This document shows, in pieces, positions 444-18,721 of a DNA stretch of 23,185 nucleotides. How positions within the stretch are numbered: the stretch's first letter is position 1; the number at the start of each line of letters is the position of its first letter. Made by a program: the position numbers and the translations under genes. Below the pieces are notes generated by a model. That model did no database searches, was not told where the DNA came from, and was given only the letters and a program-made list of their open reading frames with translations. The stretch comes from Patescibacteria group bacterium (lineage in GTDB: Bacteria > Patescibacteriota > Minisyncoccia > Phycocordibacterales > JBBUBG01). Where the stretch lies: contig JAZKIQ010000006.1 of the NCBI GenBank assembly GCA_040384765.1, forward strand, positions 20,223 through 43,407, given 5' to 3'.

Positions 444-905
444 TTAGATTTCTAGAAGATCTGGATTGGATTCGGGGTCTTTATAATGAAGAGTATTTTG
501 CTTCCAGTTTTCTCTACCATCCTCCCTTAAGGTCTTTCCATACATGAGCCTGAGGATTTCATTAAAAGCACGCTTGAAGCGGATAACATCATCCGTAGTA
601 TTAACGATTTCAATCATGCTATTGAAGCGCTCCTTCTTTCCCGGATTCTTCTCAAAAAATGGAATCCAATAGGCAGCATTACAATTTGAGTTTTCTCGTC
701 TAGTGAGACCGTTGTCGGTTATCGGAGTAAGGTAGCGCTGATCGAGCGTCGGTAAAAGACTACTTCTCTGCCGCACGATCTTTCCGTCTCGCACCCGTGG
801 GCCGTAATCAAGAACATTTGTATAATCGCTCAGCATTCCCCGATCCTCATAGATATCAAATTCCTCTTCTTTCTTTTCTGGCGGAAACGGGAATTTCTTT
901 TCCAT
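444..905 (-). CDS. Hypothetical protein, 153 aa, inserted between secY and adk
   Basis: Open ORF ending 1 bp before the adk ATG; TATAAT 6 nt upstream of its ATG; no recognisable motif. Confidence 0.75.
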   Translation of the reverse strand: MEKKFPFPPEKKEEEFDIYEDRGMLSDYTNVLDYGPRVRDGKIVRQRSSLLPTLDQRYLTPITDNGLTRRENSNCNAAYWIPFFEKNPGKKERFNSMIEIVNTTDDVIRFKRAFNEILRLMYGKTLREDGRENWKQNTLHYKDPESNPDLLEI

Positions 906-941: not shown

Positions 942-966
942 TAATCCCGGCTCAAGGCCGGGATTA
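942..966. repeat. Short REP-like hairpin / possible terminator
   Basis: TAATCCCGGC-TCAAG-GCCGGGATTA, perfect 10-bp stem; weak U-tract. Confidence 0.65.
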
Positions 967-1005
967 GAAAATGCATGCAAAGCATTCCGCTTCCCCGCCA
1001 GTGAA

Positions 1006-1158
1006 CGAGTGCGATTTTGTACAACATCTGCAGAAAGCTTTAGAAACAAAGAAGTCCTGGCTTTTCAAAATAGCGAGCGGTGCGTCTCGCGTTATTTTGA
1101 AAAGCCAGGACGACTCTTGTTTCTTAGATTTCGAAGCCGTTGTGCAAAATCGCACTCG
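1006..1158 (-). repeat. Long imperfect palindrome, copy A of a 3'-UTR hairpin family
   Basis: Arms CGAGTGCGATTTTGTACAAC/GTTGTGCAAAATCGCACTCG and GTCCTGGCTTTTCAAAATA/TATTTTGAAAAGCCAGGAC; starts 5 nt after the secY stop; shares motifs with 7174-7338. Confidence 0.85.
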
Positions 1159-1163
1159 CGAAC

Positions 1164-2435
1164 CTAGTACTCCTTCATGCTGACCTGCGCGTCGAGCTGC
1201 TTCACCAGCTCAAGGATAACCGACACCACAATGAGAAGCCCTGTACCCCCAATAGCCAAAGTTGCGTTGCCGGTGAGAGACTGAAGGACGAGCGGGAGCA
1301 CTGCAATGATGGAAAGGAAGGTTGCGCCCACGAGCGTCAGACGGGTAAGCACTTTGGCAAGATATTCAGAGGTAGGGCGGCCCGGGCGGATGCCTGGAAT
1401 AAACGCACCGCTCTTCTGAAGATTCTCGGAGATCTTGTCCGGGTCAAACGTAACGGCAGTGTAAAAGTAGGTAAAGGCAAACACGAGGATGAAATATCCC
1501 CCCGCATAGAGCCAGCTGTTCTGCAGAAAATCGCGGAGAAAACCACCGATAGCCTGCGCAACAGAGTGGTTAATCCCAACAAGAAATTGAGAGATGATCT
1601 GAGGAAAAAGGAGGATCGAAAGCGCAAAAATGATCGGAATAACGCCCGACTGATTTACCCGAAGCGGAAGGTAGGTTGAAGCGCCACCATACACCTTCAT
1701 ACCACGCACCTGCTTTGCGTATGTCACCGGCACGGGACGCTCGGCCTCGGTAATAAAGATAACCGCGGCAACCACGAGTACAGCAAGTCCGAGGAAAAGC
1801 AGGTAGAGCGGAAGCTGAGAGGGATCGTAGGTCGCCGACACCTGTGATGCGATCGCCGGAATGCGGCTCACGATACCTGCAAAGATGATGAGAGAGGTAC
1901 CGTTTGAAATACCATACTCGGTGATGAGCTCACCAATCCACATAGCAAGAACTGCACCTGCGGTAATAACAAGCAGGTTGATCAGCTGGTCAGAAAGCGT
2001 GGATGTACCGAGAATATTTTGGGTCCTCAGGAGTGCAAGAAAACCGAAGCCCTGAATGAGGGCAAGCGGTACGGTAAGGATACGGGAATATTGTGAAAAC
2101 TTCTTGCGGCCAAGATCGCCCTCCTCCTGATACATCTCCTTCATCTTTGGAAACACCATCGTAAGGAGCTGCATGATAATGGTCGCCGTAATGTACGGCC
2201 CCACACCAAGCATAAAGAGTGAGAGGCGCGAGATGCCACCACCTGAGAAAAGCGACAGGAGGCCAAGGAAGCTGTTTCCTGCAAGGTACGAAGTGAGTCG
2301 AGCCTGGTCTACCCCCGGAATCGGCACGGCATCTCCAAAGCGGAACAGAATGAGGAGCCCGATTGTAATAAGAATGCGGCGAACAATTACCTTGTCCGCA
2401 AGCAGGAGTTTAATTTTTGTGAGGAATGTGTCCAT
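1164..2435 (-). CDS. secY: Preprotein translocase subunit SecY, 423 aa
   Basis: Multi-TM protein with LGVGPYITATII, GISNGTSLIIFAGI, NLQKSGAFIPGIRPG, GGTGLLIVV; start reset to ATG 2435 (MDTFLTK). Confidence 0.98.
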   Translation of the reverse strand: MDTFLTKIKLLLADKVIVRRILITIGLLILFRFGDAVPIPGVDQARLTSYLAGNSFLGLLSLFSGGGISRLSLFMLGVGPYITATIIMQLLTMVFPKMKEMYQEEGDLGRKKFSQYSRILTVPLALIQGFGFLALLRTQNILGTSTLSDQLINLLVITAGAVLAMWIGELITEYGISNGTSLIIFAGIVSRIPAIASQVSATYDPSQLPLYLLFLGLAVLVVAAVIFITEAERPVPVTYAKQVRGMKVYGGASTYLPLRVNQSGVIPIIFALSILLFPQIISQFLVGINHSVAQAIGGFLRDFLQNSWLYAGGYFILVFAFTYFYTAVTFDPDKISENLQKSGAFIPGIRPGRPTSEYLAKVLTRLTLVGATFLSIIAVLPLVLQSLTGNATLAIGGTGLLIVVSVILELVKQLDAQVSMKEY

Positions 2436-2441
2436 GAGAGC

Positions 2442-2470
2442 AGTGTAGCGGAGGGGTGTGAATCTGTCAT
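2442..2470 (-). promoter_or_regulatory. Putative sigma70 promoter for leaderless secY
   Basis: ATGACA-N17-TACACT, then 6 nt to the ATG; the -35 hexamer lies inside the palindromic element. Confidence 0.55.
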
Positions 2471-2539
2471 TCCCGCGCATGCGGGAATCCAGATCCAAAG
2501 AAGGGTCTGGGTTTCGGACCAAGCCCGAAACGACAGATT
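2461..2539. repeat. Three-hairpin palindromic element (RPE4/dRS3-like REP)
   Basis: Closing stem AATCTGTC/GACAGATT enclosing ATTCCCGC-GCAT-GCGGGAAT, CCAGATCC/GGGTCTGG and GTTTCGG/CCGAAAC; fits ATTCCC-N8-GGGAAT; translates to the RPE-type peptide LDSRMRGND. Confidence 0.8.
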
Positions 2540-2558
2540 AGACCACCTCGCGAACTTT

Positions 2559-3023
2559 TTACTTAGCGACGGTTTTTGCCTTCGCTTCACCAACAGAAGA
2601 GATCGTCATCCCACCCTTGCCAATCTTCTCTTCTGCCGAGTGAGAGATGATCACATTTTCGAAAGAAAGCTTCTTTAAAAGCTCGCCACGGCCAAGGATC
2701 TTGATACCGGTGCCACGCTTGTGGCCAGAAAGAAGTCCTTTTGCATGCAATGTTTTTGGAGATACCTTTTCGCCAGACTGGTAGGCTGCTTCGAGCGTAT
2801 CGAGGTTGAGCACAAAAGGCTTCTGGGCAATCTTTGGCACCTGATAACCGCGAAGCTTTGGAATCTTCTTGATCTGGTCGCGGATCTCAGGGCGCTTCTT
2901 GTGGCCCGAGCGAGCATTCTGACCCTTTACACCGCGGCCCGAATAGGTACCGCGCTTGCCGCCGCGGCCTACCGTCTTTACCTTTTTATTCGCGTGTTCG
3001 CGTTTGATCGTATGAAGTTGCAT
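2559..3023 (-). CDS. rplO: 50S ribosomal protein L15 (uL15)
   Basis: VGRGGKRGTYSGRGVKGQNARSG, IPKLRG and IKILGRGEL motifs; position before secY. Confidence 0.97.
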   Translation of the reverse strand: MQLHTIKREHANKKVKTVGRGGKRGTYSGRGVKGQNARSGHKKRPEIRDQIKKIPKLRGYQVPKIAQKPFVLNLDTLEAAYQSGEKVSPKTLHAKGLLSGHKRGTGIKILGRGELLKKLSFENVIISHSAEEKIGKGGMTISSVGEAKAKTVAK

Positions 3024-3029
3024 GGCAGT

Positions 3030-3590
3030 TTATGAAAGCATCTTGAGAGCCTCGATGGTCGCGCGAGCAATGTTGAGTTTGTTTTTCGAAGACGAGAGGA
3101 TCTTTCCGTTTACATCTTTGATCCCTCCGAGCTCGAGCACGTTGCGGAGCGCAGATCCTGCAATGAGGCCGCGACCACGTGCTGGGCGAAGAAACACCTG
3201 TGCGCTTGAATATTTATACTCAATCGTATGGCGGATACTTCCCTCCTTGGTCGTCTTTACCGTAATCATATGCTTCTTCGCATCACGAAGAGCTTTTTCG
3301 ATTGCCGATGCAGTGTCGCCAGCTTTGCCCGTGCCTACACCTACGCGGCCTTTGCGATCGCCAGCAATAATATGCACAGAGAAGTTGAATCGCTTTCCAC
3401 CTGCAACCACGCGCGTTACACGGCGAAGATCGATGATCTTCTGATCAAACTCTGGCTTTACCCGCTCGCGTGCAGGACCGCGGTCGCGTCCACCCGGACG
3501 TCCGCCGCCTGGTCCACCACGACCACCCCGGCCACCTGGGCGGTTGCCGAATGATTTCTGGTCTCTTGGTTGTGGCTGTGTGTTTTCCAT
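3030..3590 (-). CDS. rpsE: 30S ribosomal protein S5 (uS5) with RGG-rich N-terminal extension
   Basis: RRVTRVVAGGKRFNF, GRVGVGTGKA and LRPARGRGLIAG motifs. Confidence 0.98.
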   Translation of the reverse strand: MENTQPQPRDQKSFGNRPGGRGGRGGPGGGRPGGRDRGPARERVKPEFDQKIIDLRRVTRVVAGGKRFNFSVHIIAGDRKGRVGVGTGKAGDTASAIEKALRDAKKHMITVKTTKEGSIRHTIEYKYSSAQVFLRPARGRGLIAGSALRNVLELGGIKDVNGKILSSSKNKLNIARATIEALKMLS

Positions 3591-3593
3591 AAA

Positions 3594-3941
3594 TTAAAAT
3601 TCGAGGCCCGCTTCACGAGCAGCATCTGCAAGTGCCTTTACGCGTCCGGTATACAGGAATCCTCCGCGATCGAACACAACTTTCTTGATGTTCTTTTCGA
3701 GGGCAATCTTTGCAATCTCTTTTCCAACAAGTGCACTCTTCTCGCTCTTTGTTCCTTTTGTCTTAAGTGAAAGAGCGCTAGCTGAAGCGAGCGTCTTCCC
3801 CGCCTCGTCATCGATAACCTGTGCGTAGACGCCCGTATTCGAGCGGTATATTGCAAGTCGTGGAACAGATGCAGTACCAGCTACCCGCATGCGGATGCGG
3901 CTGTGGCGGCGAATTCGTGCTTGTCTCTTGGAAGGTGTCAT
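3594..3941 (-). CDS. rplR: 50S ribosomal protein L18 (uL18)
   Basis: PRLAIYRSN and [28 protein letters not shown]. Confidence 0.98.
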
Positions 3942-3950
3942 GGCGTTTGA

Positions 3951-4499
3951 TTATGCAACAGACTTCTTGCCCTGCTTGCGACGGACTACCTCTGTGTCGT
4001 AGCGAATACCTTTTCCCTTGTATGGCTCCGGCACCTTGAGGGCACGGACAGAGGCAGCAAACTGGCCTACAAGCTCCTTGTCGGGACCAGTAATGGTCAA
4101 AAGGCCTTTTTCAGAGGTCACCTTAATCGTTGCCGGAATCGGCATTTTTACCTGATGTGAAAACCCAAGCGAAAGTACAAGTGTTGTCCCCACAACGTCC
4201 GCCTTGTAGCCAATACCTTCGATCTGGAGCTTCTTTGAAAATCCTTTCGTAACACCAGCAACCATATTTCCGAGGTGCGAAGCGTAGGTACCCCAAAGCG
4301 CATTGAGAAAGATAGACTCTGCCGTTGGCTTGAGCGTAAGTGTGCTCCCCTCGTGTTTGAGAGCGATATCGTTTGAAAAAGGACGTGAAAGCGTGCCAAG
4401 CGGACCTTTTACCATTACGTTTGTGTGCACCTTAAGAGGCTCGAATTTTATTTCGACGCCGCTTGGGATCTCAATAGGCTGTTTGCCGATTCGTGACAT
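3951..4499 (-). CDS. rplF: 50S ribosomal protein L6 (uL6), 182 aa
   Basis: MSRIGKQPI start at ATG 4499; PEPYKGKGIRY motif. Confidence 0.98.
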   Translation of the reverse strand: MSRIGKQPIEIPSGVEIKFEPLKVHTNVMVKGPLGTLSRPFSNDIALKHEGSTLTLKPTAESIFLNALWGTYASHLGNMVAGVTKGFSKKLQIEGIGYKADVVGTTLVLSLGFSHQVKMPIPATIKVTSEKGLLTITGPDKELVGQFAASVRALKVPEPYKGKGIRYDTEVVRRKQGKKSVA

Positions 4500-4503
4500 A
4501 TAA

Positions 4504-4893
4504 TTACCAGATTTGAAACAAAAGCTCACCGCCAACTTTCTCCTTTCGAGCGTCCCTATCAGAGAGGAGACCCTTTGGTGTGGAGAACACAGCAAGACCA
4601 CGACCTTCGCGCACTGGGCGAATCTCAGATACACCAAAGTAGACGCGCTTGCCTGGCTTTGAGATGCGCTTTACATCAGAGACGCGAGCAACGCCTCCCT
4701 TCATTGCAAGCTCAAGCTCGAGATATTTCTTTACCCGCTTCCCTTTCTGAGAAACAGCTGCGAGGTAGCCCGCCTTGGCGAGAATCTCTGCAATCTCCTG
4801 CTTGATGCGTGAGTGCGGAATAACCAAAGTCGCGCGGCCACGGTGGGCTGCGTTCTTTACCTGAGTGAGCATATCTGCGATGGGGTCGGTCAT
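4504..4893 (-). CDS. rpsH: 30S ribosomal protein S8 (uS8)
   Basis: MTDPIADMLT, RISKPGKRVY, STPKG and GGEL motifs. Confidence 0.98.
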   Translation of the reverse strand: MTDPIADMLTQVKNAAHRGRATLVIPHSRIKQEIAEILAKAGYLAAVSQKGKRVKKYLELELAMKGGVARVSDVKRISKPGKRVYFGVSEIRPVREGRGLAVFSTPKGLLSDRDARKEKVGGELLFQIW

Positions 4894-4909
4894 AGAAGTG
4901 AGGAGGAGG

Positions 4910-5095
4910 CTACCAAGACGATTTTTTTACACCCGGGATCTTTCCTTCGTTTGCAAATTCGCGGAAGCAGATTCGGCACATATCAAATGCGCGCATATAG
5001 CCTCGCTTGCGACCGCAGCGAAAGCAACGGCGCGTAGCACGCGTGCTGAACTTTGGCTTCTTTTCTGAACGTGCAATTACGGATGTTTTGGCCAT
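4910..5095 (-). CDS. rpsN: 30S ribosomal protein S14, zinc-binding type Z, 61 aa
   Basis: CxxC-x12-CxxC (CFRC...CRIC) and C-terminal IPGVKKSSW. Confidence 0.98.
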
Positions 5096-5131
5096 ACCTT
5101 AACAAAAATCGTCCTTTTGGACGTGAATTAG

Positions 5132-5160
5132 ATACTAGCAAGACGGAAACCCCTTGTAAA
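5132..5160 (-). promoter_or_regulatory. Putative sigma70 promoter for the rpsN-secY cluster
   Basis: TTTACA-N17-TAGTAT with extended -10 TGn, 36 nt upstream of the rpsN ATG. Confidence 0.7.
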
Positions 5161-5255
5161 GTGGGCCCTTGCTTAGGGGCAGCAAAAGGCCACTTTTTAC
5201 CCTCTTCTTTTGAAGAGGAAAGCGAAAAATGCCTGTACCGCAGAAAAAGGAGCGC

Positions 5256-5313
5256 AAAAAGAGAGGGCCGCCGGATGGTCCAGTTTCCTACTGAAACTGG
5301 CCTCCGGCGGCCC
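5256..5313 (-). terminator. Intrinsic terminator after the 58-aa ORF
   Basis: GGGCCGCCGGA..CCAGTTTC/GAAACTGG..TCCGGCGGCCC stem followed on the minus strand by TCTCTTTTT. Confidence 0.75.
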
Positions 5314-5327
5314 ATGGCGAACGCTAC

Positions 5328-5504
5328 TTAGGCGTTCATGTGATCGTGTCGCGACTCAACGAAGGTCGGCGACCTCATAGCCAACTGCCCCCGGCGCGCC
5401 TCGGCCTGCTTGCGCCGCTGGCGACGGCTGCGGTGATTGTGGCTCTTCTTGCCCTTCTTGCCGCGAGGGCGCAGTGAATGAGGCAGTTCGTCCCAATTTC
5501 GCAT
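5328..5504 (-). CDS. Small basic Arg/Lys/His-rich protein, 58 aa
   Basis: Not in the ORF track: MRNWDELPHSLRPRGKKGKKSHNHRSRRQRRKQAEARRGQLAMRSPTFVESRHDHMNA; GAGGAG 10 nt upstream; own promoter and terminator. Confidence 0.7.
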   Translation of the reverse strand: MRNWDELPHSLRPRGKKGKKSHNHRSRRQRRKQAEARRGQLAMRSPTFVESRHDHMNA

Positions 5505-5595
5505 TCTTCCCGATCTCCTCGAATACTACAGAACTGTTTTTGGAACTCCGCACGGAGTCCCAGACGGCCGTACTACTCCCCCAGGCCGGATGAAA

Positions 5596-5624
5596 AGTAT
5601 AGCAATGGCGGAGCTCGTCATCAA
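5596..5624 (-). promoter_or_regulatory. Putative sigma70 promoter for the 58-aa ORF
   Basis: TTGATG-N17-TATACT with extended -10 TGn. Confidence 0.7.
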
Positions 5625-5669
5625 GAAATTTGGTGGGGAAAAGAAGAGGTCACATGTCGTTTTCTCCTG

Positions 5670-5721
5670 AAAAAGAAAAACCGCCCTCCTCATTCCACGT
5701 GATGGGGATGAAGCTGGCGGT
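5670..5721 (-). terminator. Intrinsic terminator after the 359-aa ORF
   Basis: Interrupted stem closed by ACCGCC/GGCGGT followed on the minus strand by TTTTCTTTTT; a second hairpin lies at about 5727-5755. Confidence 0.65.
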
Positions 5722-5789
5722 CGGTTACTCAGCGGCTACGTGAGCGGCTGAGAGTGTAGTGGAGTTGGGTCGGGCTCGGGCCGGCAGGA

Positions 5790-6869
5790 CTAGTGCGTCT
5801 GCTGGTGCTGGGCGGTCTCGGCGAGCATGGTACCCGCGACGACGGTCGCGAGCGGCCGCAGGTCGATGTCGACCTGCTTGGCCTGGCGGCTGTTGCGGGC
5901 GATGACGACCGCGTCACCGACGCGGCCGATGAGCTCGCTGCCGTTCGCGAGGTGCTTGCCCACGATCGGCGTGACGGAGACCCGCTGGTTCTTGAACGGC
6001 ACCGTGATGAGGTGCAGCTCTCCCTGGCGGCTCTTCGCGATGAAGTAGGTCGCGCCGTTCTTCGACACGATCGCGCGCGAGGTGCGCGGCAGGATCTGGT
6101 ACGGGGTGCTCCCGATCAGGTTCCACGCCATGCCCTTCGTCGCGTTCTCGGGCGTCGTCCCGAGGATCATGTTCTTGGTGAACGCGATCATCATCGGGGT
6201 GTCGTCGGTCTTGACGAGCATCGCGCTCGCCATTGCGCCGTTGCGCAGGAGCACCGGGGCGGGATCGGCGTTGCCGACCTTCACCCACGAGCGGCTCTTG
6301 TGCTTCGGGTTCGCGGCGAGGCGGAGGTCATCGGTGTTCTTCTTCGCGAACGCGTTGACCGCGGTCTTGAAGAAGTCCGAGCTCTCCGGCATGAAGATCC
6401 CAGCGGTCACCACCGTGATCACGCTGAGCTTGCCCTGCTGCACCGTCTGCGCGTAGTTGAAGTACTCGAACCCCGGGCGCTCGAACACCGGCGCCGACGC
6501 CTTGGGGTTGCCCTCGAGAGAGAGCGCACCCTTGGCGTAGGTCACGAGGTGAGCCGACTGGCCATCCTTCGCGATGCCGACGAGCGCGAGCTCGGAGGCA
6601 TTGATGGACTCCAGCGTCTTCCCGAACGCAGCCACGTCGCTGTCGATACCGAACACGAAGACGCGCTCGAGGCCGATGTGCGGGGCCTTGTTCTCCCGGA
6701 TCAGACCCTGCGCCTGCGCGAAGCGCGAGCCCTGATTGCTGCGGCCGTGATTGCGGCCACCGCGGTGATGGCGCCGACCCTGCGGGGCGGTACCGTTCTT
6801 CGCAGCGAGCGCGGCCTTGAGGCGGCGGATCTGGGCGTTCTGGTTCTGACCCTGGTTCTGATTGTTCAC
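5790..6869 (-). CDS. Hypothetical protein, 359 aa, with basic disordered N-terminus
   Basis: GTG start with AAGGAG 5 nt upstream; very strong C/G third-position bias; no family recognised. Confidence 0.85.
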   Translation of the reverse strand: MNNQNQGQNQNAQIRRLKAALAAKNGTAPQGRRHHRGGRNHGRSNQGSRFAQAQGLIRENKAPHIGLERVFVFGIDSDVAAFGKTLESINASELALVGIAKDGQSAHLVTYAKGALSLEGNPKASAPVFERPGFEYFNYAQTVQQGKLSVITVVTAGIFMPESSDFFKTAVNAFAKKNTDDLRLAANPKHKSRSWVKVGNADPAPVLLRNGAMASAMLVKTDDTPMMIAFTKNMILGTTPENATKGMAWNLIGSTPYQILPRTSRAIVSKNGATYFIAKSRQGELHLITVPFKNQRVSVTPIVGKHLANGSELIGRVGDAVVIARNSRQAKQVDIDLRPLATVVAGTMLAETAQHQQTH

Positions 6870-7063
6870 TTAGACTCCTTCGAGTTTCGGTACTTCTTGC
6901 TCGAGCAAGCCAGCCTTGGCTCCTCGAGCTTCGAATCGCATATCCACTACTACTGTGTATCTGCGACCCTGTCAGTGCCGAAACAGTGTTTCGAAGCTGG
7001 CAGGGTCGCAGAACGTTTTGAAAGAACTTTTTTCCAAAAAGGAAACTGCACCAAATGTGCAGG
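6870..7063 (-). promoter_or_regulatory. Structured 5' leader of about 195 nt with boxA-like motif
   Basis: Hairpins CTGCAC/GTGCAG and TCTGCGACCCTG/CAGGGTCGCAGA (6960-7012); AGTTCTTTCAAAA at 7016-7028. Confidence 0.55.
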
Positions 7064-7069
7064 AGGACG

Positions 7070-7098
7070 ATGATAACAAGCTCAGCAATATCTGTCAA
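7070..7098 (-). promoter_or_regulatory. Near-consensus sigma70 promoter for the 359-aa ORF
   Basis: TTGACA-N17-TATCAT with extended -10 TGn. Confidence 0.8.
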
Positions 7099-7113
7099 TA
7101 GTTCTGCTTATTC

Positions 7114-7150
7114 ATAGAAAAAACGCCTCATCATAAGGCGTTTTTTCTAT
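7114..7150. terminator. Intrinsic terminator of groESL (bidirectional shape)
   Basis: ATAGAAAAAACGCCT-N7-AGGCGTTTTTTCTAT. Confidence 0.85.
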
Positions 7151-7173
7151 CTTCAGCCTCTGGCGAGGTGCGT

Positions 7174-7338
7174 GATCCCTGACAAGAACATCTGCAGGAA
7201 ACCTTTAAAAGAAAGGAGTCCTGGCTACCGAAAATAGTGGTCGTACGACACGAAGTGCGTACGGGAACCGCGACCATTTTCGAGGAGTCAGGACGACTAT
7301 TCTTTTTTAGGTTTCCGAAGCCGTTCGGGGCAGGGATC
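7174..7338 (-). repeat. Long imperfect palindrome, copy B of the 3'-UTR hairpin family
   Basis: GATCCCTG/CAGGGATC outer stem; AACATCTGCAGGAAA, AGTCCTGGCT, CAGGACGACT and TTTCCGAAGCCGTT match motifs in 1006-1158; starts 9 nt after the groEL stop. Confidence 0.85.
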
Positions 7339-7347
7339 TCCGCCGAG

Positions 7348-9077
<1,730 letters not shown>

Positions 9078-15772: not shown

Positions 15773-18721
15773 CTACCGTATCCCCTCCCGAAGCGCGCAG
15801 TATTGGCACTCCGGCGTCTCGCACCGCTTATCCCAAAAGGCCAAACTCTTGATCTGCTCCGCTACCGAGCGAATAAGATCCTCGAGAGTTTTCACATCAT
15901 CGCTCGAAATATCAAAATGTTCGCGATGATAGCGACCTTTTTCGTCAGGCTCGATGAAATCGATATCACCCGACACCATCTCGAGCTCTCCGTCATTGTG
16001 GCGATCGAGGAGCAGCTTATAGAAGCGTAGCTGGCGAAGATAGTCCCCTGTCGCGCTTTTGGTAGCGCCGGCAATCTCATTGCGAGATTTTGGCTTCCCT
16101 GTTTTGTAGTCCACGATATTCACCTTGTTTCCACTATCCAAAAATTCAATCTTATCGATTGCGCCGAGGAGGCGGATCTCTCCATCGAGGATCACATCGG
16201 AAATAAACAGCTCATTTTTACTGTTCGAAAGCCAGCTGCCTTTGTACTGGTCGTAGTAGCCACCAAGCGCCTCTCGCCCCCGCAAAAGCGACTCTTGGTA
16301 GTCAGCCTCGCGAAGGGGCTGCGAAGCCAGATACTTTTCAAACAGGGTCACCAAAGCCACCTTTCCCATATCTTCCCCTTCGCGGTACTTATCAAAAAAG
16401 ATGCGCAAGGAGGCATGCACCGCGATGCCGTACAACATCGCTTTCGACTGAGCTTTTGGCACGCGAATCAGATTTTCATAAAAATAGCGCCAAGGACACG
16501 CGAGATAGGCGTTGAGTGCAGTCGCAGAAATCCCCTGCATAAGGAAAAGCTCGTTTAGGTACTGCTTCTCGTACAACGACGGGGGAAGGTCCTGTGATGG
16601 GCCGTACAAGATCTCCGGTGAAACTGAGGTTTCTGAAACATCGGGAACTACTTCCGTTCTATATCGCTCCTCTATCTCACCAATAAATTGTGAAGGCAGC
16701 TGCGGACGGCCATCCGCACCCTGGCGTGCATACGAAATGGTAATGCGCTTTTTTGCACGAGTAAGAGCTACGTAGAAAAGGCGACGCTCATCTTCATTGC
16801 CATCCTCATCACTCCCCGCAAGTGGCAGGTGAAACTGCTCACGCGTACGCTTGTTGCCCCAGTGTCCGTCATACGCGCCGACGATAAAGACGCACAGAAA
16901 CTCAAGCCCCTTTGCCCGATGTGCGGTCATGAGGCGCACTACCCCCGCACGGCCTGCGGGCTTTTTTGCGAGGGTGAGGCCATGCTCGCGCAGCACGAGC
17001 AGGTGGCGCATAAGAGCGCCGAGATCTGCCTCGCGCTTCGACTCGACAAGCGCCTGCATCTCTGCAAAAAAAGTGCGCACCTTCTCGAGCTTTTCGCGTG
17101 AGTCAGGCGCCGCAAGTATCGAAGCGAGGTAGCCTGATTCGGTCATGATCTCTTCAACCACCTCAAGCAGATTTGCGTTTTTAGACCGCACACGCCACCG
17201 CTTGAGCTTGGCGGCAAACTCCGTAAACTCGGGCACGGCCTGCATCTCCTCGTACAGGTTCTTTTTATCCTTGTGAACCTCGGAAAAAAGCGTGTACACA
17301 GCAAGCGGCGAGAATCCAAGATAATCGAGTGAAAGCGCAGGCAAAAGAACTACGGGGTCTCCATACCCTTCTACTGCGGCGAGCAGAAGCGTGAGCCTGC
17401 GAATATCGATATCCTCGAGCAGGTTCTGATCTGACTCGACGACATACGGAATGCCAAGCTTTGCGAGGAGCCGTGAGTAGAGGCTGGCGTCTCGATTGTT
17501 GCGATAGAGCACGGCGACCTCTTCGGAAGGGGTACCCTCCTCGAGCGCCTTCTCGATGGCGCGAGCGAGCACAAGCGCTTCTGCTTCTCCTGTCTCGCAC
17601 GAAACAATGCTTACCGAAACATCTTCGTGTGGAGCTTTTGCCTCGAGGCGAGTCCGCAGCTCTCCTCCCTCTTTCGCTTTCCCGATCACACTATGCGCAG
17701 AGTCGAGAATGGTCTGCGATGAGCGATAGTTGTCGATGAGGCTAATGAGCTTTGCCTCGGGATAGTGCTTCTGAAATGAGAGGAAGTTGGCAAGAGAGGC
17801 ACCTTGAAAGCGATAGATCGCCTGCTTTTCATCACCTACAATAAATATATTCGGGTTTTCGTGAAAGCTCGCAAGAAGCTCGAGCAAGCGGTTCTGTGAG
17901 TCATTGGCGTCTTGATGCTCGTCCGCAAGAATATACTGATACTCCTCTTGGATCTCCAGGCGAAAATCGTCGCTTGCTTCGAGCGCTCGCACCACTTCGA
18001 GAATCATATCCTCGTAGTCGTAGAGTCGCCGCTCACGCAGCGCCTCTTCGTACGCGCGATACAAGAGCGCAAGCTCTTTATTTTTCTCGATCCGCTTGTG
18101 CGTATCTTGATGCTCGCCTTTCATCTTCCCTTTATGAGCACCTTTTATGTGGTACAGATCGTCACGTGAAGCAAAGGCATCTTCGGCCTCTTTGTTAAGC
18201 AGGTCAAAACGATCGGGTGAAATATTTTCACGCTTGAGGTCGCTGATCGCAGAAAGCGCGCTTTGGGTATAGAAAAGTGGGTCGCCGTACGGCCGGAGGC
18301 GCGAAAGTGGCACGGCAGGCAACAGCTCCTGCATCAGTACAATACGATCGACCGTGGAGACAGACTGTGCGCCAACGATGCGCGGAAACTCTTCGGGAAA
18401 TCGGCTGATAACGGTGTTGCAAAAGCCGTGGAAGGTAAAGATCGGCACGCGATATGCGTCCGAGCCAACGATCTCGAGCAAGCGCTTGCGCATCGCTGCC
18501 ACACCCGCCTCGGTAAAGGTAAGTGCAAGAATCGAGTCCGGAGAGGCATCGGTCTCCTTGAGGATATTGGCGATACGGAGGGTGAGGATCTGGGTCTTCC
18601 CTGTCCCCGGGCCCGCCACCACCATCACGGGCCCCTCGATAGCATCTACAGCCTCCCGCTGCTTGGGATTGAGCTTTTGATACGCTTTTTCGAATGCTTC
18701 TGTCGTCAGAGCCTTTGCCAT
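15773..18721 (-). CDS. UvrD/PcrA-family SF1 helicase fused to a PD-(D/E)XK nuclease with four Cys, 982 aa
   Basis: AGPGTGKT, ADEHQD, GDEKQAIYRFQGA, TAHRAKGLEF, ERRLFYVALTRA; C-terminal ACPWRY...IDKI...IVDYKTG...CETPECQYC; start reset to ATG 18721. Confidence 0.93.
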   Translation of the reverse strand: MAKALTTEAFEKAYQKLNPKQREAVDAIEGPVMVVAGPGTGKTQILTLRIANILKETDASPDSILALTFTEAGVAAMRKRLLEIVGSDAYRVPIFTFHGFCNTVISRFPEEFPRIVGAQSVSTVDRIVLMQELLPAVPLSRLRPYGDPLFYTQSALSAISDLKRENISPDRFDLLNKEAEDAFASRDDLYHIKGAHKGKMKGEHQDTHKRIEKNKELALLYRAYEEALRERRLYDYEDMILEVVRALEASDDFRLEIQEEYQYILADEHQDANDSQNRLLELLASFHENPNIFIVGDEKQAIYRFQGASLANFLSFQKHYPEAKLISLIDNYRSSQTILDSAHSVIGKAKEGGELRTRLEAKAPHEDVSVSIVSCETGEAEALVLARAIEKALEEGTPSEEVAVLYRNNRDASLYSRLLAKLGIPYVVESDQNLLEDIDIRRLTLLLAAVEGYGDPVVLLPALSLDYLGFSPLAVYTLFSEVHKDKKNLYEEMQAVPEFTEFAAKLKRWRVRSKNANLLEVVEEIMTESGYLASILAAPDSREKLEKVRTFFAEMQALVESKREADLGALMRHLLVLREHGLTLAKKPAGRAGVVRLMTAHRAKGLEFLCVFIVGAYDGHWGNKRTREQFHLPLAGSDEDGNEDERRLFYVALTRAKKRITISYARQGADGRPQLPSQFIGEIEERYRTEVVPDVSETSVSPEILYGPSQDLPPSLYEKQYLNELFLMQGISATALNAYLACPWRYFYENLIRVPKAQSKAMLYGIAVHASLRIFFDKYREGEDMGKVALVTLFEKYLASQPLREADYQESLLRGREALGGYYDQYKGSWLSNSKNELFISDVILDGEIRLLGAIDKIEFLDSGNKVNIVDYKTGKPKSRNEIAGATKSATGDYLRQLRFYKLLLDRHNDGELEMVSGDIDFIEPDEKGRYHREHFDISSDDVKTLEDLIRSVAEQIKSLAFWDKRCETPECQYCALREGIR

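Follow-up and report, generated by a model that had tools for sequence, protein, structure and literature searches.

The window analysed here, a stretch of 23,185 nucleotides corresponding to positions 20223-43407 of contig C6 of a Patescibacteria genome of Saccharibacteria type (working label G000; 822,710 bp in 12 contigs, rated 99.8% complete, coding fraction 89%), contains two long palindromes, hereafter called rods, which stand directly behind secY (copy A) and groEL (copy B). They belong to a multi-copy family whose arms are complementary far beyond chance and whose substitution pattern looks like that of a DNA palindrome and not like that of an RNA selected in mRNA sense. The locus comprises the following features:

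1164..2522, minus strand: secY, open reading frame (ORF; Pfam SecY, E 1e-102) with stop codon TAG, the gene upstream of copy A
1003..1163, minus strand: rod copy A, 3' of secY (match of covariance model R1 at C6:21225-21385, 132.5 bits)
1132..1141, minus strand: 5' arm of the basal helix of copy A, AACGGCTTCG (sequence read and motif match)
1023..1033, minus strand: 3' arm of the basal helix of copy A, CTGCAGATGTT (sequence read and motif match)
942..966, minus strand: terminator-like hairpin with T-rich tail downstream of copy A (consensus scan, pattern match only)
7348..9003, minus strand: groEL, ORF (Pfam Cpn60_TCP1) with stop codon TAG, the gene upstream of copy B
7166..7347, minus strand: rod copy B, 3' of groEL (match of covariance model R1 at C6:27388-27569, 175.7 bits)
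7316..7325, minus strand: 5' arm of the basal helix of copy B (sequence read and motif match)
7187..7197, minus strand: 3' arm of the basal helix of copy B (sequence read and motif match)
about 7118..7146, no strand assigned: hairpin AAAAAACGCC..GGCGTTTTTT with A-tract and T-tract, between copy B and the convergent ORF upstream (read from sequence)

The two hairpins that a first-pass annotation had observed are confirmed. Palindrome A runs on the minus strand from 1158 down to 1006 and begins 5 nt past the TAG of secY, and palindrome B runs from 7338 down to 7174 and begins 9 nt past the TAG of groEL. When the minimum free energy (MFE) of each rod folded as RNA was compared with 200 shuffles, copy A (167 nt) reached -83.3 kcal/mol against a mean of -38.0 (sd 3.8; z -12.0) and copy B (186 nt) -77.5 kcal/mol against a mean of -49.5 (z -6.45), and in neither case was any of the 200 shuffles as good. 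The short hairpin reported after each rod was also found, at 966-942 in the consensus terminator scan and at about 7146-7118 by direct reading, and both are terminator-like; the latter is absent from the list given by the scan and looks like a two-way terminator. The two copies can be aligned with a core identity of 62%, counted between the AAC and GTT landmarks with gaps as mismatches, and the stem differences quoted between them are indeed compensated. The sequence blocks described as unpaired are mostly paired in the consensus structure, in which AACGGCUUCG and CUGCAGAUGUU form a mismatched helix. GUCCUG and CAGGAC, also taken for unpaired, pair with each other, and their identity is a property of copies A and B only and is not conserved in the family. 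Copy B has a complete apex (GGTCGCGGTTCCCG..CACTTCGTGTC..CGACCACT); that of copy A is shortened relative to most copies in the ten-copy alignment.

Copies, structure and substitution pattern of the family

An nhmmer profile built from nine copies found ten full copies in G000 at E <= 8e-32, which a covariance model made from ten aligned copies (R1) scored at 132-184 bits, together with a mini copy of 84 nt (34 bits). Element length ranges from 85 to about 190 bp, and one copy is situated 278 bp from the end of a contig. The alignment and the pair counts support the family proposed from the two rods of the window, which is real and multi-copy and has fixed mismatch positions and heavily compensated stems; the core identity of 48-91% among copies likewise agrees with the statement that the two rods are not a recent duplication. 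Loose motif-pair scans were swamped by chance matches and were set aside in favour of the profile and the covariance model. The comparison with Rfam proposed at the same time showed that the family matches no entry: with Rfam 15 the window gave no match at gathering score, the rods being touched only by chance-level matches (E ~1-7), and eight related loci gave none at E <= 0.1. In the literature searched, we found no description of the palindrome family.

Each copy consists of an invariant but imperfect basal helix (the foot), a long inner rod that drifts and yet remains complementary, and outer arms specific to the copy. In gene sense, the conserved blocks are AACGGCTTCG, TAAAArrGAATAGTCG, TCnAAAAT, CTCCTTTC..TTAAA and CTGCAGATGTT, and the conserved apex is GGTCGYGGTTCCCG..CACTTYGTGT..CGACCACTATTTT, to which four copies of the alignment add an extra apical hairpin. 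Both arms of the foot (alignment columns 24-33 and 168-178) are invariant or nearly so across the ten copies. As DNA, AACGGCTTCG/CTGCAGATGTT contains G·T, G·A and T·C mispairs and one bulged T; as RNA, AACGGCUUCG/CUGCAGAUGUU contains G·U, G·A and U·C mismatches and a bulged U. This invariance among copies that are 48-91% alike suggests an ongoing constraint. The outer arms are often perfect and the inner parts carry old mismatches. The groEL and recA copies have cores that are 91% alike and weak outer motifs (GCTCG.. and ..CTCGC) that recur in both, yet about 13 bp per arm beside the foot are wholly unlike. Weak partial nhmmer matches (E 0.09-3) are the only candidates for free-standing half units, and the arms are complementary over their whole length.

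The pairing was analysed on the RNAalifold structure (59 pairs, 581 pair cells), with 500 shuffles and slid registers as controls. Paired cells made up 92.6% of the total, compared with 72.8% in the shuffles and 41-51% in the slid registers; both-sided changes occurred in 41 of the 59 pairs, and none of the 500 shuffles reached any of the pairing measures. Nearly all changes lead from one Watson-Crick pair to another; two-sided changes account for 121 cells and one-sided (G·U-type) changes for five, and outside the conserved G27·U175 of the foot A·C is found in 16 cells and G·U in six. Related elements of Campylobacterales (34 sequences, described below) gave about 135 two-sided and four one-sided cells. 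Furthermore, when each of the 11 copies and its complement were folded, the strand opposite the mRNA was the more stable one in 11/11 copies with RNA parameters and in 10/11 with DNA parameters. Had selection acted on an RNA in mRNA sense, G·U pairs should be tolerated and A·C avoided. The scarcity of G·U, the higher frequency of A·C and the more stable complement therefore correspond to the pattern of a DNA palindrome and not to that of an mRNA-sense RNA.

These counts weigh on the idea that the rods serve the host as a structured RNA in the 3' untranslated regions (UTRs) of highly used genes, where a protein would read the mismatched foot and the internal loops and where the rod would stabilise the mRNA against 3' exonucleases, undergo processing of the RNase III type or insulate neighbouring genes. 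The invariant mismatch positions and the conserved G·U are what such a role would predict, but G·U intermediates are almost absent, A·C is more frequent than G·U and in 11/11 copies the mRNA-sense strand folds less stably than its complement; taking the genomic context below into account as well, we regard this explanation as unlikely.

Genomic context and the wider rod population

Seven copies follow a gene on their own strand and begin 0-11 nt past its stop codon. The association with secY and groEL made in the first-pass annotation is incidental, as recA, lepA, recG, the class-II aldolase gene (fba) and the gene for the CCA-adding enzyme (cca) precede the same family too. A further two or three adjoin a stop codon in antisense orientation, and one is situated between two divergent genes, which leaves three or four of the 11 copies out of gene sense; in total, 10/11 border the 3' end of a gene. 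All six gene-sense copies whose flanks were read have a terminator-like hairpin beyond the rod, and because the rod precedes this separate hairpin, these six copies are probably transcribed as 3' UTR. A T-run directly past the rod is present in only two of 11 copies (C5:117k and C7), and the separate terminator-like hairpins lie 20-60 nt further on; the same two-in-eleven count led us to reject the rod as an intrinsic terminator and to rule out an insertion into the loop of a terminator, in which the outer arms would be followed by a T-run. This context offers the host-RNA explanation some support, namely the seven copies behind the stop codons of same-strand housekeeping genes, the position of the rod upstream of the terminator-like hairpin in the six copies read, and an orientation that follows the adjacent gene and not replication skew, with recA and recG as counter-oriented genes. 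Three copies antisense to their neighbours and one in a divergent region argue against it.

Orientation followed no rule with respect to GC skew, with four copies on the G-rich and seven on the C-rich strand. This is relevant to another explanation, in which the strand opposite the mRNA acts as a single-stranded DNA site of the host, a plasmid or a phage, either as a single-strand origin or priming site or as a folded recombination site of the attC or CTX attP type. It would account for the better fold of the complement in 11/11 copies, for the A·C pairs of the sense strand, which are G·T on the other, for an imperfect helix with fixed mispairs and for the AAC...GTT at the foot of the conserved part. 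However, a consistent relation to GC skew is missing, the neighbours are housekeeping genes and not cassettes, the outer arms pair well beyond AAC/GTT, the bases before AAC do not resemble RYYYAAC, and viral contigs gave no matches, so that we see a slim chance for such a site. In integrons, the attC consensus places an R'' box (RYYYAAC) and an R' box (GTTRRRY) at the two outer ends of a palindrome located 3' of mobile cassettes. An integron attC site was rejected here, as AAC/GTT is internal with 12-33 bp of pairing outside it, TTAAAAC and TGAAAAC are unlike the consensus and the neighbours are housekeeping genes (no search for IntI was made).

The genes around the copies have little in common. 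When the ORFs on either side of the 11 copies were compared all against all, no shared gene emerged, only spurious ORFs inside the element, and Pfam assigned the 35 neighbours to housekeeping genes and one GIY-YIG ORF, several having no family, with no transposase adjoining any copy. The GIY-YIG ORF (C3:17575-17838, minus strand), of 87 aa and with a nuclease domain, is located some 1 kb downstream from the copy at lepA. In the window itself, a 153-aa ORF without Pfam match (444-905, minus strand) lies between the secY rod and adk; in the closest relative, L109, adk follows secY after about 200 nt and this ORF is absent. A strong sigma-70-like match (7070-7098, minus strand; TTGACA, 17 nt, TATCAT, with TG) is found just downstream of the terminator-like hairpin of groEL. 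The recA gene (C10:21043-22101, outside the window) is split into two ORFs by an in-frame TAG (..VKI*DLLISQPD..) without a run of N, which could be a sequencing error, a pseudogene or read-through.

The TAG stop codons next to both rods are not remarkable because TAG is the commonest stop in G000 (363 of 824 ORFs, 44%, according to the crude ORF model on which all our stop-codon statistics rest). A PYLIS or read-through signal after TAG was set aside for the same reason, and also because relatives that lack the element have the same SecY C-terminus with the same stop. A seed-and-fold screen of the genome (palindromes of at least 80 nt, MFE per nt < -0.38) detected at least 129 rods, which add up to 18,276 bp (2.2% of the genome) and comprise one family of 38, the secY/groEL family, several small families and 61 singletons. 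The 38-member family has the core CACGGATA..AAAAATTYCCTCGAGCTCGC..CTAG with copy-specific, perfect outer arms and is represented in the window at 17382-17585. Among the 60 rods that face the 3' end of a gene, 33 start within 15 nt of the stop codon; the crude model places 55 rods inside ORFs, some of which are surely spurious. This proportion, together with the frequency of TAG, indicates that the features noticed at secY and groEL are general to G000. A possible guide function was also considered: the ten variable arms, searched with up to two mismatches, had no match in the genome beyond the partner arm and one likely chance match. A search with the weak outer motifs for pre-existing empty target palindromes gave only noise.

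Behind each of six tRNA genes stands a terminator-like hairpin, and after it comes the reverse complement of the gene's own T-arm and acceptor 3' end, which makes palindromes of 70-115 nt (C2:17071-17277, C5:156905-157070, C10:70855-71002, C1:118444-118605, C9:14529-14688 and C5:175241-175399). These six were seen by eye, and an exact-match test recovers only 3 of 43 tRNAs; past some of the tRNA palindromes stands a conserved motif of the AGCCGGAGCGCG.. type. Such cases demonstrate that arms can arise from existing flanks, and one could imagine that all rods grew in place by fold-back or template-switch copying of their flanks, with neither mobility nor function, the likeness between copies being due to a few old duplications. 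Outer arms that are copy-specific and often perfect, around inner parts with old mismatches, would fit this origin. Nevertheless, a core of 140 nt common to ten loci and to other genera and phyla requires dispersal, and growth in place does not predict that the groEL and recA cores are 91% alike while the 13 bp or so by the foot differ and weak outer motifs are common to both; of the explanations discussed here, we consider this one the least probable.

Distribution among relatives and across phyla

The family has a patchy distribution among the relatives of G000. Within the order, the covariance model matched 3 of 41 and 4 of 151 genomes (G000 counted among them), and the exact foot pattern (AACGGCTTCG-N98-128-CTGCAGATGTT) was present in 2 of the phylum's 401 genomes. 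No match was obtained in 724,613 bp around secY from 80 metagenome relatives, and the family is absent from the 3' ends of secY and groEL in five relatives; the nearest relative compared at the secY site, L109, is 87% identical in SecY. Unrelated long rods start right after the secY stop codon in L109 and in two further genomes (G001 and G020), and a short hairpin is found there in G073 and none in G002. The rods of L109 and G001 belong to other families, each of which has members in G000, so that different palindrome families have come independently to occupy one kind of site. This is the behaviour of dispersed selfish elements and is unlike that of a gene-specific regulator. Both the absence of the family behind secY and groEL in every relative examined and the presence of different rod families at the same site also count against a host-serving RNA.

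Our scan for the foot pattern in one genome per species returned 58 loci, of which about 43 belong to Campylobacterales, two to Saccharibacteria and one to Gracilibacteria, where the rod stands directly after gdh; about 12 look like chance (GC-rich coding DNA), and in viral contigs the pattern had no match. In Campylobacterales the repeat is multi-copy in Sulfurimonas and others, Sulfurimonas sp. CS5 having at least one copy (L045), and the same two motifs close the structure, but the body differs: it is less rod-like and shows a side hairpin, AAACTC-hairpin-TCAAACAG and a leader rich in A. The copies lie 50-150 nt past varied housekeeping genes, mostly on the same strand, a lean towards gene sense that would also suit an RNA role. 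A genome from another class of Patescibacteria (G529) carries an element that combines the basal helix with a body and leader of Campylobacterales type. Some associated features were noted as well: the Sulfurimonas-type element (loci L043-L098) is preceded by a GTACTTTTTT..AAAAAAGTAC hairpin, and after it there is often a second rod-like repeat, with an apex that is the first one's in reverse complement, so that BIME-like clusters result; a locus labelled Nitrosopumilaceae (L070) carries a repeat of Campylobacterales type.

Judged from the 21 nt of the foot and its role as closing helix, the G000 rods may be akin to the elements of Campylobacterales and G529; the foot itself occurs in Campylobacterales as well as in Saccharibacteria, Gracilibacteria and one more class of Patescibacteria. 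A bolder explanation would make the 21-nt foot AACGGCUUCG/CUGCAGAUGUU the handle of a hairpin system, mobile or programmable and so far undescribed, that crosses phyla and in which one protein-recognised foot carries interchangeable bodies and a hypervariable helix. Under this explanation, the wholesale replacement of the helix between copies that are otherwise 91% identical would point to a cassette-like or address-like segment. We consider it improbable; if it were true, it would imply a new enzyme, or one borrowed from the host bacterium or a phage by a 0.8-Mb epibiont without recognisable transposase.

Known mobile palindromes, the candidate enzyme and a possible mechanism

By comparison with known systems, the family is most likely a new kind, small and parasitic, within the mobile palindromes that resemble REPINs, MITEs (miniature inverted-repeat transposable elements) and ERIC. 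The repetitive extragenic palindromic (REP) unit is described as an imperfect palindrome of 20-40 bp, one end of which bears a GTAG or CGTC tag that stays unpaired (Di Nocera et al. 2013, PMC3733652), and the REPIN as a replicative unit of two inverted REPs with a spacer that together form a hairpin (Bertels & Rainey 2011, PMC3116915). The G000 family resembles such elements in being multi-copy, extragenic, mostly downstream of ORFs (11 copies, 10 bordering gene 3' ends), probably co-transcribed and non-autonomous, and in forming a hairpin in single-stranded DNA or mRNA. In addition, genes for Y1 proteins similar to the REP-associated tyrosine transposase (RAYT) are frequent in the same order, and one is flanked by the related element of G529. 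On the other hand, the unit looks like one rod of 150-190 nt and not like two REPs of 20-40 bp with a spacer, neither end has a conserved GTAG or CGTC in the ten aligned copies, in which the conserved unit spans 140-190 nt, the arms beside the foot are hypervariable, and a cognate RAYT was not found in G000 and was seen once, for the related element of G529. Furthermore, REPs are described as lineage-specific, whereas the basal helix of the G000 type is common to several phyla.

ERIC/IRU, Correia/NEMIS and RUP are MITEs, that is, imperfect palindromes of 100-170 bp which occupy transcribed intergenic DNA in either orientation and have size variants by internal insertion; to our knowledge, ERIC has no transposase of its own. 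The apical insertions of four copies and the mini copy are comparable size variants in the G000 family, which differs in having no visible terminal inverted repeats that match an insertion sequence (IS) and no visible target duplication of TA type, in a conservation concentrated in the mismatched foot helix and not at the termini, and in its host, a Patescibacteria genome of about 0.8 Mb. With respect to IS-derived MITEs, no transposase adjoins the copies, and direct repeats in the flanks are inconsistent (TAG..TAG in two of seven). As regards presence or absence at orthologous sites, the secY 3' end lacks the element in 80/80 metagenome relatives and 5/5 genomes, in a comparison whose closest relative is only 87% identical in SecY. 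In the IS200/IS605 group, the hairpins that Y1 transposases recognise on one strand of the DNA are imperfect and have fixed mispairs, and no target is duplicated. The imperfect hairpin with fixed mispairs, the lack of a target duplication and the G529 copy beside a Y1 gene are reminiscent of this group and of its miniature derivatives, the PATEs, but there are no two distinct end hairpins, the element being one rod, and G000 has no tnpA or tnpB. The family works like REPINs and ERIC-type MITEs, yet it departs from the definition of REP and REPIN, because there is no GTAG/CGTC tag, no clear REP doublet and no cognate RAYT in G000, and from that of an IS-derived MITE, because no terminal repeats or target duplication were seen.

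A search for a linked RAYT or TnpA gene, also suggested earlier, found none in G000 and one in G529, where a full copy and a partial copy of its 3' 150 nt (149/151 identical) flank a two-gene unit whose second gene encodes a 204-aa Y1_Tnp protein; G529 has four Y1_Tnp matches in all. Y1_Tnp genes are present in 5/5 other element-bearing genomes tested and in 26 of 40 relatives of the order (among G001-G040; frames of about 200-320 aa, one to six per genome), most of which lack this family. For 7/7 Y1 proteins from relatives, G529 and Sulfurimonas, the best NCBIfam match was the REP-associated tyrosine transposase, one of them above the cut-off. The assignment of a RAYT-like enzyme is a lead and not a result, because no such gene was found in G000 and RAYT-like loci elsewhere show no element nearby.

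On balance, we lean towards regarding the rods as non-coding, non-autonomous palindromic DNA repeats of the REPIN/MITE/ERIC kind, with the mismatched foot as a protein-recognition site; mobility as such, the enzyme and a single-stranded intermediate are what we infer from the data. The interpretation offered in the first-pass annotation, a structured RNA or else a single-stranded DNA or mobile palindrome, is partly supported, in that the patchy, non-syntenic distribution favours its second half and the scarcity of G·U disfavours selection on an mRNA-sense RNA. Several observations weigh against the repeats being mobile DNA. The flanks of the copies show no consistent target-site duplication and no terminal-only inverted repeats, and there is no sign of recent activity, since no pair of copies is more than 91% alike. 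G000 has no PF01797 (Y1/RAYT) match, the best tblastn hit with eight RAYT-like proteins being at E 0.16, and neither TnpB-type nor RVT_1 domains were found; no element is seen beside the RAYT-like genes of Sulfurimonas, G002 and other relatives, and the association is not specific, given that such genes are common in relatives without the family. In addition, each of the seven copies next to a stop codon on the same strand reads in gene sense, about 17 of 24 copies in Sulfurimonas come after a gene on their own strand, and G27·U175 is kept in 9/10 G000 copies and in 34/34 Campylobacterales sequences; a foot that is invariant in a genome without visible partner enzyme speaks for a role as RNA.

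If the rods are indeed mobile repeats, the element would spread, or would have spread, as DNA of which one single strand folds into the rod, and the mismatched basal helix could act as the site of recognition and cleavage for an enzyme supplied in trans, the leading candidate being a RAYT-like HUH/Y1 tyrosine transposase. Copies would survive where insertion is harmless, between the stop codon and the terminator, and their co-transcription with the gene, as part of its 3' UTR, would hence be a by-product. The arms would stay complementary through processes acting on the DNA, either selection for the hairpin that it forms or templated correction from arm to arm.

For the discovery of RNA motifs, the family is a caution, as very strong covariation (41 of 59 pairs) occurs here without the G·U signature of RNA selection. 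A helix of recognition type is common to one family of G000 and to abundant repeats of an unrelated phylum. The reduced genomes of Patescibacteria are thought to be poor in repetitive and selfish DNA, and here at least 2.2% of 822 kb consists of rods set against stop codons. If they are mobile, the rods would offer a handle on the movement of DNA within and between ultra-small epibionts and their neighbours, and would provide ready strain markers.

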